Of a stretch of DNA of 64,000 nt, positions 58,515 through 63,865 are shown one piece after another. Every line of letters begins with the position of its first letter. Within the stretch, counting starts at the first letter, position 1. The translations under genes and the position numbers were made by a program. This stretch comes from Escherichia coli. GTDB lineage: Bacteria; Pseudomonadota; Gammaproteobacteria; Enterobacterales; Enterobacteriaceae. The stretch is from NCBI RefSeq assembly GCF_044324785.1, contig NZ_CP172127.1; one strand, 5' to 3'. A model generated the notes under the pieces. That model was not told the DNA's origin. It did not search any database and was given only the letters and a program-made list of their open reading frames with translations.

Positions 58515-59174
58515 ATGGCTAACTGGTTAAATCAACTGCAATCCCTGCTTGGGCAAAGCAGTTCTTCTACCTCCTCGTCTGCGGATCAGGGATTGGGCAA
58601 ACTTTTAGTGCCTGGCGCATTAGGCGGACTGGCTGGGCTGCTGGTCGCAAATAAATCAGCACGTAAACTTCTTACGAAATATGGCACCAACGCGTTGCTG
58701 GTTGGCGGCGGAGCGGTAGCGGGTACGGTGCTGTGGAATAAATACAAAGATAAAATTCGCGCGGCGCATCAGGACGAACCGCAGTTTGGCGTGCAGAGTA
58801 CGCCGCTGGATGAGCGTACGAAACGTTTGATCCTTGCGCTGGTCTTTGCCGCTAAAAGTGATGGTCATATTGATGCCAAAGAACGTGCGGCAATCGACCA
58901 GCAATTGCGTGAAGCCGGCGTGGAAGAGCAGGGGCGTGTACTCATTGAGCAGGCAATCGAACAACCGCTGGATCCACAACGCCTGGCTACCGGGGTCCGC
59001 AATGAAGAAGAGGCGTTGGAAATCTATTTCCTGAGCTGCGCGGCTATTGATATTGACCATTTTATGGAACGCAGTTACCTGAATGCACTGGGTGACGCGC
59101 TGAAAATCCCGCAGGATGTTCGTGAAGGCATTGAACGCGATCTCGAACAGCAAAAACGCACTTTGGCGGAATAA
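58515..59174 (+). CDS. yebE: DUF533-family inner membrane protein YebE
   Basis: ORF track 219 aa. Confidence 0.9.
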
Positions 59175-59182
59175 TTCCGCTC

Positions 59183-59219
59183 TCTGGATAGCCTGAAGTT
59201 GACGATTTCGGGCTATCCA
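59183..59219. terminator. Hairpin immediately downstream of yebE (tctggatagcc ... ggctatccaga), no clear T-tract
   Basis: 11-bp inverted repeat read from sequence. Confidence 0.45.
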
Positions 59220-59280
59220 GAACCGCACAGCCATTTGAGCAGGCTGATTTTCTCTGTCTGCATAACATTCGATATCCGCG

Positions 59281-59500
59281 CCATTACCTGTCATCATGTG
59301 ACTGCTCCCCGCCCTGTCGGGCGAGGCTTCCCACTTCTTAAGCCGCAACCGTCTGTGTGACGGATTTACGCTGGCCTCCATGGGCAGAAACGACGAGTCC
59401 CGCCGCTTGTAATTCCAGTATGCCCTTGCGTTTGATGTTGAGCGCCGCGTTGATATCGCGGTCATGTTCAACTCCACACTCTGGACACTGCCAGATGCGC
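59281..59500 (-). ncRNA. Predicted TnpB guide RNA (omegaRNA / right-end RNA): scaffold overlapping the tnpB 3' end and right-end hairpin, guide from adjacent flank
   Basis: Inferred from the established architecture of TnpB systems (omegaRNA encoded at the tnpB 3' end through the IS right end); not directly visible as a gene; boundaries are approximate. Confidence 0.3.
59307..59326. repeat. Subterminal imperfect hairpin at the tnpB-proximal IS end (ccccgccc tgtc gggcgagg)
   Basis: 5-bp GC stem + mismatch + 2 bp; same motif and orientation as the hairpin at the other end. Confidence 0.7.
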
Positions 59501-60507
59501 TTATGTAATGGCATCTCCGACATTTTGTGACCGCAGCAGTGGCAGGTCTTCGAACTGGCGAACCATTGATCCAGTTTCACCAGATGCACACCTTTCTCTG
59601 TTGCTTTGTATTCCAGTTTTGTGATGAATCCAGACCATCCAGCATCGCCTATCGCACGAGCCAGATGGTGATTTTTCATCATATTTGCCGTTTTCAATGT
59701 CTCGACAATTACCGCTTGGTTTTCGTCAACAATTGCGCGAGATAACTTGTGCTGGAAATCGGCACGGGCACTAGCTACCCGTTCGTGAACGGCTGCAAGT
59801 TGTATTCTGGCTTTGCGCCTGTTTGCGCTCCCTTTTTTCTTACGGGACAGTGCTTTCTGCTTCCGGCGCAGGTTGCGACTTGCATTGATTAGGTGGCGGG
59901 GACTGGCAATTTTATTGCCGTCCGATTTGATGACAAAATGCGCCAGCCCCATATCCAGCCCTGTCACATTTGATATCAGTGCGGGCTTTGCCGGCGCTTC
60001 CATCCCGTCGTCACAGAGTAACGACGCGTAGTATTTCCCGGTTGCGCTGCGGCTCAACGTGATACTTTTCAGCATTCCCGTAATTTCACGATGTAAACGC
60101 GCTTCAATCGGCAAGATTTTCGGTATTTTTATCGCACCATCAAGGACTTTTATGCCAACACAATGATAGCTCGATTGTCTGCCGTGTTTACTTTTAAAGG
60201 TTGGTTTACCTGCTTTCAGTTTCGGATTGAAAAAGTTAGAAAAAGCCACGTCGAGGTTAATTACCGCCTGCTGCAACGCAATAGAATCATATTCTTTAAG
60301 CCATCCATACCGGCGGGATTTCTTCGCCACTGCAAGCAGTGGTTTGAGGTCTTTACGCGGGTTTAAATTTACGCGGTGCCGCTGGTAAGAATGTTTCTTG
60401 ATATGCAGAGCTTTGTTGTACGCAAAACGCACTGCACCGAACTGGGCGTTGATAAATTCAGCCTGTTCTGGTGTCGGGTAGATGCGTACTTTTGTTGCTC
60501 TTAACAT
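59338..60507 (-). CDS. tnpB: TnpB (IS605 OrfB-family RNA-guided endonuclease; RuvC-like + zinc finger)
   Basis: ORF track 389 aa; N-terminus MLRATKVRIYPTPEQ is classic TnpB; RuvC-I D in GLDMGL, RuvC-II E in VIVETL, zinc finger CHCCGH...CPECG, RuvC-III DRDINAALNI; ATG start. Confidence 0.92.
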   Translation of the reverse strand: MLRATKVRIYPTPEQAEFINAQFGAVRFAYNKALHIKKHSYQRHRVNLNPRKDLKPLLAVAKKSRRYGWLKEYDSIALQQAVINLDVAFSNFFNPKLKAGKPTFKSKHGRQSSYHCVGIKVLDGAIKIPKILPIEARLHREITGMLKSITLSRSATGKYYASLLCDDGMEAPAKPALISNVTGLDMGLAHFVIKSDGNKIASPRHLINASRNLRRKQKALSRKKKGSANRRKARIQLAAVHERVASARADFQHKLSRAIVDENQAVIVETLKTANMMKNHHLARAIGDAGWSGFITKLEYKATEKGVHLVKLDQWFASSKTCHCCGHKMSEMPLHKRIWQCPECGVEHDRDINAALNIKRKGILELQAAGLVVSAHGGQRKSVTQTVAA

Positions 60508-60529
60508 AATCAGCGCTCATTGATATAAT
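60501..60529 (+). promoter_or_regulatory. Putative sigma70 promoter for tnpA (-35 TTAACA at 60501..60506, 17-nt spacer, extended -10 TGaTATAAT at 60521..60529)
   Basis: Consensus -10 TATAAT with upstream TG; followed by SD aggtgg at 60549..60554 and a TTG start at 60564. Confidence 0.45.
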
Positions 60530-60535
60530 GCTTTT

Positions 60536-60563
60536 ATTTTAACACTTTAGGTGGATATATCAA
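60536..60563 (-). promoter_or_regulatory. Putative sigma70 promoter for tnpB (-35 TTGATA at 60558..60563, 16-nt spacer, -10 TAAAAT at 60536..60541, minus strand)
   Basis: Hexamers read from sequence; no experimental support. Confidence 0.4.
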
Positions 60564-60989
60564 TTGAGTAATCATGATGATTTACTGGCGGGATTTCTCC
60601 GCAAACGACACAGTGTCAGTAAGCTGGTTGTGCACCTTATTTTTACGACAAAGTATCGACGCAAACTATTCGACAGTCAGATGATCGCTCAGTTGCGTGA
60701 GGCTTTTGGCTCCGCTGCGGCAAAGCTTGAATGCGAAATTATTGAGATGGACGGGGAGCCAGACCATGTACACCTGCTGGTTGCCTACCCGCCAAAACTG
60801 GCGGTCAGTGTGATGGTCAATAATTTAAAATCGGTATCATCACGTTTGCTACGCCAGCAGAACGCGCATTTACGTATGCAGAGTAAAACGGGGCTTTTGT
60901 GGTCGAGATCGTACTTTGTCTGTAGCACCGGAGAGGCAACGATTGAAACGCTCAGAGCCTACGTTCAGAGTCAGTCAACACCTGATTGA
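60564..60989 (+). CDS. tnpA: TnpA (IS200-type Y1 HUH single-strand transposase)
   Basis: ORF track 141 aa; HUH motif HVHLL; C-terminal catalytic Tyr region SRSYFVCSTG; conserved TTKYRR; probable TTG start preceded by AGGTGG. Confidence 0.9.
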   Translation: MSNHDDLLAGFLRKRHSVSKLVVHLIFTTKYRRKLFDSQMIAQLREAFGSAAAKLECEIIEMDGEPDHVHLLVAYPPKLAVSVMVNNLKSVSSRLLRQQNAHLRMQSKTGLLWSRSYFVCSTGEATIETLRAYVQSQSTPD

Positions 60990-60994
60990 TCTTT

Positions 60995-61011
60995 AAAGCC
61001 CTGCGGGCTTT
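60995..61011 (+). terminator. Rho-independent terminator after tnpA (aaagccc tgc gggcttt + T)
   Basis: 7-bp stem, 3-nt loop, T-run; read from sequence. Confidence 0.6.
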
Positions 61012-61022
61012 TCGCCTTATAT

Positions 61023-61043
61023 CCCCGCCCGCATTGGGCGAGG
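61023..61043. repeat. Subterminal imperfect hairpin at the tnpA-proximal IS end (ccccgccc gcatt gggcgagg)
   Basis: Same stem sequence and mismatch position as the hairpin at 59307..59326. Confidence 0.7.
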
Positions 61044-61118
61044 GTTTACGGCGTTTTTCGCTAAGCAATGACTACCCTGTTTCGCTTGCATCTCCGGTGA
61101 GTTTTGCCACCCTTATAA

Positions 61119-63865
<2,747 letters not shown>

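Follow-up and report, generated by a model that had tools for sequence, protein, structure and literature searches.

A compact sigma-70 bidirectional promoter proposed for the tnpB/tnpA spacer of the Escherichia coli insertion sequence ISEc46

In Salmonella IS200, synthesis of the transposase TnpA is held down by a weak promoter, a stem-loop that sequesters the Shine-Dalgarno (SD) sequence and an antisense RNA. In the IS605 element of Helicobacter pylori, the tnpA and tnpB genes are in divergent orientation. Bidirectional promoters, defined by Warman et al. as divergent transcription start sites 7 to 25 bp apart, have been described in general terms (Warman et al. 2020/2021; Middlemiss et al. 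2023; Warman et al. 2026). A distance of 7 bp is among the enriched spacings listed by Warman et al. and is explained by pairing between -10 and +1 positions; 24% of these promoters lie between divergent genes (Warman et al. 2026). Here we analyzed the divergent tnpB/tnpA spacer of ISEc46, an insertion sequence of the IS200/IS605 family located in a stretch of 64,000 nucleotides of E. coli contig NZ_CP172127.1 (assembly GCF_044324785.1; hereafter the window). A literature search found no description of promoters in the divergent spacer of an IS605-type element or in ISEc46, and the start sites mapped in the homologous Salmonella spacer appear in the literature only as rows of a supplementary table.

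The spacer comprises 56 bp (60508-60563) between the tnpB ATG at 60507 on the minus strand and the tnpA TTG at 60564-60566 on the plus strand. We consider it likely that this spacer is a compact sigma-70 bidirectional promoter at which one polymerase excludes the other, with tnpA starting at the TTG codon. A consensus scan of the plus strand identified TTAACA-17-TATAAT at 60501-60529 (11/12), and on the minus strand TTGATA-16-TAAAAT was found at 60563-60536 (10/12); both carry the TG of an extended -10 element. The -35 element of the tnpA promoter, TTAACA (60501-60506, plus strand), overlaps codons 1-3 of tnpB and is present in nearly all relatives, while its extended -10 element, TGaTATAAT, occupies 60521-60529 of the same strand. 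For tnpB, the -35 element TTGATA (60558-60563, minus strand) abuts the tnpA start codon and is conserved in relatives, and the extended -10 element is TGtTAAAAT (60536-60544, minus strand). A sequence-only reading of this DNA had placed the tnpA -10 hexamer TATAAT at 60524-60529 and the tnpB hexamer TAAAAT at 60536-60541, where the plus strand reads ATTTTA, with 6 bp between them (60530-60535). All of these positions were confirmed in the sequence, as were the SD motif AGGTGG at 60549-60554 (plus strand, 9 nt before the TTG), the TTG itself and the 56-bp length of the divergent region.

Counting 7 nt past each -10 hexamer gives an A at 60536 on the plus strand as the predicted start of tnpA and an A at 60529 on the minus strand as that of tnpB. 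The two predicted start sites are thus 7 bp apart, in agreement with the earlier claim that they nearly coincide. That claim had described the promoters as overlapping and back-to-back. The first term was correct and the second was not, since each promoter spans the start site of the other and the pair is therefore crossed and fully overlapping. Along the DNA the order is -35(tnpA), -10(tnpA), +1(tnpB), +1(tnpA), -10(tnpB), -35(tnpB). The 56 bp are made up of the leaders of 22 and 28 nt with 6 bp between them, near the lower size limit for a spacer with two complete promoters. The predicted +1 A of the minus strand is paired with the -7 T of TATAAT (60529), and that of the plus strand with the -7 T of TAAAAT on the minus strand (60536). 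With key positions of the two opposed sigma-70 -10 elements pairing reciprocally and start sites predicted 7 bp apart, the spacer fits the 7-bp class of bidirectional promoters of Warman et al. The predicted transcripts of tnpA and tnpB diverge without overlap.

In the mechanism that we propose, the tnpA promoter would start transcription at A60536 and the tnpB promoter at A60529 of the opposite strand, and both open complexes would melt the same ~15 bp. The tnpA mRNA would carry a 28-nt leader containing the AGGTGG motif and be translated from the TTG at 60564, and the tnpB mRNA would have a 22-nt leader. From the geometry alone we infer that two polymerases cannot occupy the spacer together, because each promoter spans the other's start and the bubbles would share about 15 bp. 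Both promoters probably work in the high-occupancy regime, in which competition has been shown for other bidirectional promoters; competition is expected in ISEc46 because -35 elements matching 5/6 and extended -10 elements are present on both sides. It is plausible that the exclusion, or the weak start codon, sets the level of TnpA.

Sites scoring at least 10/12 are rare in the window. Six were found on both strands of the 64 kb; an extended -10 TG occurs only in the two sites of the spacer, which are also the sole divergent pair. The only other site scoring 11/12 in the window, TTAACA-18-TATAAT at 62665-62694 on the minus strand, lies inside ptrB and antisense to it. When the 76-bp segment (71% A+T) was shuffled 100,000 times, 18 shuffles gave at least 11 on one strand and at least 10 on the other (~2e-4). 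The low frequency among shuffles and the rarity in 64 kb indicated that the promoter signal was not a by-product of A+T richness.

Conservation was evaluated in relatives recovered with TnpA in a scan of one genome per species. The scan yielded 72 loci, and the matches analyzed further were 70-94% identical to TnpA of the window; one locus (L006), with a 99% identical TnpA, is a near-duplicate of the window copy. The roughly 30 relatives span Enterobacterales, Vibrionales, Alteromonadales and Oceanospirillales, and include Pluralibacter, Photorhabdus, Serratia, Shewanella, Vibrio, Idiomarina, Endozoicomonas and Marinospirillum. Altogether 36 copies (TnpA identity 70-99%), the window copy and plasmid copies from Salmonella and E. 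coli among them, were anchored on the start codon, and conservation of single columns was read from an alignment of 31 unique sequences. The gap between the -10 hexamers was exactly 6 bp in 27 of the 36 copies and 6-8 bp in 31. In every anchored copy the tnpB -35 element (TTGATA, TTGAAA, TTTACA or TTGAAT) occupied positions -6 to -1 from the start codon, and the spacers between -35 and -10 elements were 16-17 bp long. The conserved columns were the key positions for sigma-70, namely the T, A and final T (T-12, A-11 and T-7) of each -10 element, at 80-90% or more; for the tnpA -10 element these three bases were kept in at least 90% of the unique sequences. The tnpB -10 element was retained as TAnnnT, with TATAAT in Idiomarina-type copies, and the minus-strand -35 element as TTGAnA. 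The 6-bp gap, the middles of the hexamers and the SD region were variable (30-70%). The hexamers, spacings and 6-bp gap conserved in these relatives, together with the mapped start sites on both strands of a Salmonella homologue described below, support the two promoters named in the sequence-only reading.

Two more distant relatives had other layouts. One with 67% TnpA identity (L042) has 22 bp between the -10 elements, and one with 35% identity (L074) uses an ATG start and another geometry. It follows that the exact architecture is confined to the clade sharing about 70% or more TnpA identity. In a derivative without tnpA (L005), the tnpA -10 element has decayed to TACAGG and no consensus promoter is left, which speaks for the proposed tnpA promoter. 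This tnpB-only form was found at 2141-2320 of locus L005 on E. coli plasmid pZ1323CEC0001-2 and on many IncI/IncF plasmids of E. coli and Salmonella (H54-H61, H85-H94). Its homology to the window ends at about 60545, tnpA, the tnpA SD and the tnpB -35 element being deleted, and its left end (flank CTAA, which is TTAG on the top strand) is joined about 70 bp upstream of tnpB.

Several decayed copies still carry the promoter hexamers. The copy of Photorhabdus namnaonensis (L013) has an in-frame stop at tnpA codon 7, that of a Photobacterium damselae plasmid (L004) has an apparent frameshift as read from the alignment, and that of E. coli p20AR0300A (L002) combines a frameshifted tnpB with a truncated tnpA.

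Start sites have been mapped in a homologous spacer. The copy on Salmonella virulence plasmids (L003/L078) is 82% identical, adjoins spvD and has a tnpB cut to its N-terminal 116 codons. For S. Typhimurium SL1344, start sites were determined by cappable-seq against NC_017720.1 (Middlemiss et al. 2023, PMC10268837, Table S1). In the tnpA direction (minus strand of the record), starts on pSLT were listed at 68149, 68148, 68145, 68144, 68137 and 68128, and in the tnpB direction (plus strand) at 68143-68148, 68152-68155, 68161 and 68165-68167; nearly all starts in the spacer are flagged in the table as members of divergent pairs (PMC10268837). After conversion of coordinates, the position 7 nt past the homologous tnpA -10 element (TATATT) was 68145 and that 7 nt past the homologous TAAAAT was 68152. 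Both positions are in the mapped list, 7 bp apart on opposite strands, and flagged as "divergent pair". The spacer is also a hot spot of start sites: about 20% of its strand positions were mapped, compared to about 0.7% as the average of the two plasmids, a background estimated from published totals. The 116-aa tnpB remnant is labelled "helix-turn-helix" on Salmonella virulence plasmids. The tnpA gene is annotated as intact on the S. Enteritidis plasmid and lacks annotation on pSLT, the match there being 1 base shorter. A tnpB-only copy was looked for on pCol1B9 of SL1344, and none was found in the first 50 kb.

The start codon of tnpA was evaluated separately. An in-frame TAA at 60540-60542 (plus strand) closes the tnpA frame upstream, so no canonical start precedes the TTG at 60564, and after it the GTG of codon 23 (60630) comes next. 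The sequence-only reading had regarded this TTG as the probable start, and several lines of evidence agree with it. RefSeq annotates the same start, solved TnpA structures and NF033573 align from residues 13-15 onward, and the MSNH N-terminus is conserved. As the homology begins so early, translation from a downstream codon would cost the protein the first strand of the fold. When seven enterobacterial copies were compared over codons 2-23, the first, second and third codon positions differed at rates of 0.04, 0.12 and 0.49 per site, and this third-position bias indicates that the stretch is translated. A G-rich SD-like motif lies 9-10 nt upstream of the start codon throughout the relatives. 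At the homologous position, the 11 enterobacterial copies have TTG and the remaining 25 have GTG, and ATG was found in none of the 36.

TTG and GTG initiate translation several-fold less well than AUG in E. coli, and either codon would be expected to keep TnpA translation low. That the clade uses TTG or GTG throughout, with no ATG, suggests that inefficient initiation of the transposase has been selected for. It is possible, although in our view doubtful, that the TTG is the real start and its weakness unselected, the non-ATG codon being a historical accident of the clade with no role in limiting the transposase. Only two states occur and they split along the phylogeny, so a single change might explain them, and the distant relative with 35% identity (L074) uses ATG. 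However, the first base of the codon did vary between T and G and was never A in 36 copies, while flanking non-coding columns were only 30-70% conserved, and L042, whose N-terminus is different, also has TTG.

Several observations weigh against the bidirectional promoter with mutual exclusion. The start-site data come from the homologous Salmonella copy; in that copy the tnpA -10 element is TATATT without TG, and tnpB is truncated. In the tnpB direction 16 positions were mapped within 25 nt, in three clusters, so that starts also occur outside the predicted position and hexamers other than the named ones may dominate; the table gives positions without read counts. Because 16 starts crowd 25 nt, agreement with the predicted tnpB position counts for little when taken by itself. 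The tnpA -35 element overlaps tnpB codons in most copies, and its conservation is confounded there. Five natural bidirectional promoters showed, at their basal activity, no or negligible steric competition, which appears once a -35 element is improved (Warman et al. 2026). Finally, the promoter model leaves a conserved block at 60510-60520 unexplained. As regards the tnpA -35 element, L025-type copies have extra bases between the tnpB ATG and the promoter, and there the non-coding -35 element is still TTGATA at the right spacing. Its conservation is thus not solely due to the tnpB codons.

The crowding of Salmonella start sites could also be explained by an A+T-rich "promoter island": multiple -10-like hexamers would drive transcription either way, and the named pair would belong to a diffuse set without special geometry. 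The three tnpB-direction clusters on pSLT (68143-48, 68152-55 and 68161-67) and the six tnpA-direction starts are in agreement with this, and each tnpB-direction cluster lies 7 nt past a TAnnnT hexamer, namely TAACAT, TAAAAT and, overlapping the tnpA -10 element, a TATATT on the minus strand. The window has a further TAAAGT at 60549..60544, and start sites of this kind are abundant in plasmid DNA in general (PMC10268837). Nevertheless, we regard a diffuse set as unlikely. The 6-bp gap, the key positions of the hexamers and the positions of the -35 elements are kept over wide divergence whereas neighbouring bases are not, the named sites are by far the best matches in ISEc46, both with TG, and the family does not retain the extra Salmonella hexamers (TAACAT and the minus-strand TATATT).

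Among the non-coding parts of the spacer, conservation in the alignment of relatives is highest in TCAGCGCTCAT at 60510..60520, a block that reads TCAGYGCTCAT in the relatives (core CAGYGCTCA, 60511-60519) and is more conserved than the promoter hexamers. It sits between the -35 and -10 elements of tnpA, holds its distance to the promoters and not to the tnpB ATG, and is palindromic in only half of the relatives. A search of the relatives for a conserved RNA fold of the tnpB leader near the block found none. A more elaborate model gives this block a role. The crossed pair would be a selected, mutually exclusive switch, so that at a given moment one DNA copy transcribes either the transposase gene, for excision, or tnpB together with the guide RNA, for re-insertion by homing. 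The quality of the hexamers and the weak TTG or GTG codon would set the ratio of the two, and CAGYGCTCA at 60511-60519 would be the operator of a factor that biases the choice. We regard this extended model as improbable.

In ISEc46 the block contains an ATG that is out of frame with tnpB and opens a 20-codon ORF overlapping the tnpB start. In Idiomarina copies (L020-L023, L033) and similar ones the corresponding ATG is in frame (MSAE-MLKA...), and TnpB of Idiomarina-type copies may be four residues longer. The upstream ATG at 60520 (minus strand) was rejected as the true tnpB start; its frame varies between copies, and 4 of 31 relatives lack it. A 9-bp perfect inverted repeat, ATTGATATA / TATATCAAT at 60519-60527 / 60556-60564, covers the tnpA -10 element, the tnpB -35 element and the first base of the TTG. 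It was rejected as an operator, as it occurs only in the near-identical enterobacterial subclade and is absent from the Salmonella, p20AR0300A and marine copies; it probably reflects the likeness of -35 and extended -10 elements. In the ISEc46 tnpA leader RNA (60550-60586, plus strand), the SD and TTG can pair with codons 5-8 (75-nt fold -15.4 kcal/mol, z -1.9). An SD-sequestering hairpin was rejected as a family feature, the Salmonella copy having a z of +0.9 and an alignment of 23 relatives showing no consensus pairs.

Very improbable is the explanation that the hexamers are chance matches in A+T-rich DNA and that transcription comes from read-through of yebE/ptrB or from intragenic promoters. 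Consensus scans alone are no evidence of function and the spacer is 71% A+T, but the shuffle probability and the uniqueness of the pair in 64 kb speak against chance, as do the conserved architecture and the start sites mapped in the homologous spacer, and the yebE terminator hairpin (59183-59221) lies between yebE and ISEc46. Translation of tnpA from CTG 60585 or GTG 60630, with the first 7-22 codons as an untranslated leader, is hardly credible: the rarity of TTG starts is all that speaks for it, and the homology from residues 13-15, the bias in codons 2-23, the conserved MSNH and the SD 9 nt before the TTG are all against it.

ISEc46 is 1763 bp long and lies at 59298-61060 between yebE and ptrB, with its top strand (the tnpB-sense strand) on the minus strand of the window. 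The empty yebE-ptrB site of K-12 aligns with the window up to 59297 and again from 61061 on, which places the junctions at 59297/59298 and 61060/61061. Neither shared bases nor a target duplication occur there. The element is present at the same site in about 450 of 5426 complete E. coli genomes (~8%). The ORF at 59338-60507 (minus strand) encodes TnpB, a 389-aa protein of the RNA-guided endonuclease family according to RefSeq and NCBIfam NF040570 (342 bits, cut-off 100). The ORF at 60564-60989 (plus strand) encodes the 141-aa Y1 HUH transposase TnpA with its TTG start [RefSeq: WP_000064873.1], named "IS200/IS605-like element ISEc46 family transposase" and matching NF033573 (141.8 bits, cut-off 55). 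Its relatives in the PDB are 2EC2, 2A6M and 2XM3 (E 1e-22 to 1e-15), it matches the solved Y1 transposases of Sulfolobus, ISHp608 and ISDra2, and the HVH motif and the C-terminal tyrosine were found in the sequence.

Like other IS200/IS605 elements, ISEc46 combines such a transposase with the absence of target-site duplication and terminal inverted repeats, and has similar subterminal hairpins at both ends on one strand. The left-end hairpin, CCC.CGCCC-loop-GGGCGGGG, is located at 61023-61044 on the minus strand (DNA fold -13.1 kcal/mol, z -2.9), and the right-end hairpin, TCGCCC-GACA-GGGCGG, identified from the sequence and a DNA fold, at 59309-59324 on the same strand. Both ends have the CGCCC/GGGCG hairpin in common on the tnpB-sense strand. 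TTAG precedes the left end in the window copy and in the tnpB-only copy L005, the two sites compared. An Rfam scan of 58900-61400 gave no match for an omega RNA at the 3' end of tnpB. The sole match in this region, to mir-4662, was spurious and fell on the hairpin just 3' of yebE (59183-59221, 15-bp stem). Since K-12 carries the hairpin as well, it is the yebE terminator and not a part of ISEc46, outside which it lies.

The crossed promoters are a real observation and an evolutionarily conserved feature, and they probably belong to a promoter type already described. The TTG start was likewise already in the RefSeq annotation; the assignment of the ISEc46 spacer to this promoter type is new and well supported. 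TnpB, from which Cas12 descends, originates from IS200/IS605 elements, and the balance between transposase and RNA-guided nuclease in these elements is poorly known. An exclusive promoter pair with a conserved weak transposase start is a concrete and easily testable model for this balance, and the spacer would offer a natural example, strong on both sides, of the rarer 7-bp class of bidirectional promoters. In practical terms, start sites and a start codon can be annotated for an element found in about 8% of complete E. coli genomes.

Compared to known systems, ISEc46 resembles IS605/IS606-type elements in having a Y1 HUH TnpA and a TnpB that diverge from a short spacer, subterminal hairpins and no target duplication. 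With IS200 it shares a presumed aim, low synthesis of a Y1 transposase at the level of translation initiation. The means differ: unlike IS200, ISEc46 has a near-consensus tnpA promoter, its family shows no conserved hairpin in the leader to sequester the SD or start codon, and a weak start codon is used instead. In soxR/soxS and acrR/acrA, divergent mRNAs likewise arise from overlapping promoters, with polymerase competition when one side is strengthened. Those pairs have the dedicated regulators SoxR and AcrR and starts 10-23 bp apart, whereas the predicted starts in ISEc46 are 7 bp apart and have no known regulator. The closest likeness is to the bidirectional promoters of Warman et al., with sigma-70 -10 elements on opposite strands, reciprocal pairing and a predicted 7-bp spacing. 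Within that group, the common class has 18 bp between starts and a shared -10 region, while ISEc46 has separate -10 elements, 6 bp apart, each in the initial transcribed region of the other. Typical members have weak -35 elements, in contrast to the good -35 and extended -10 elements on both sides of ISEc46, and the architecture of ISEc46 is conserved across a clade of insertion sequences and is no incidental by-product of symmetry.

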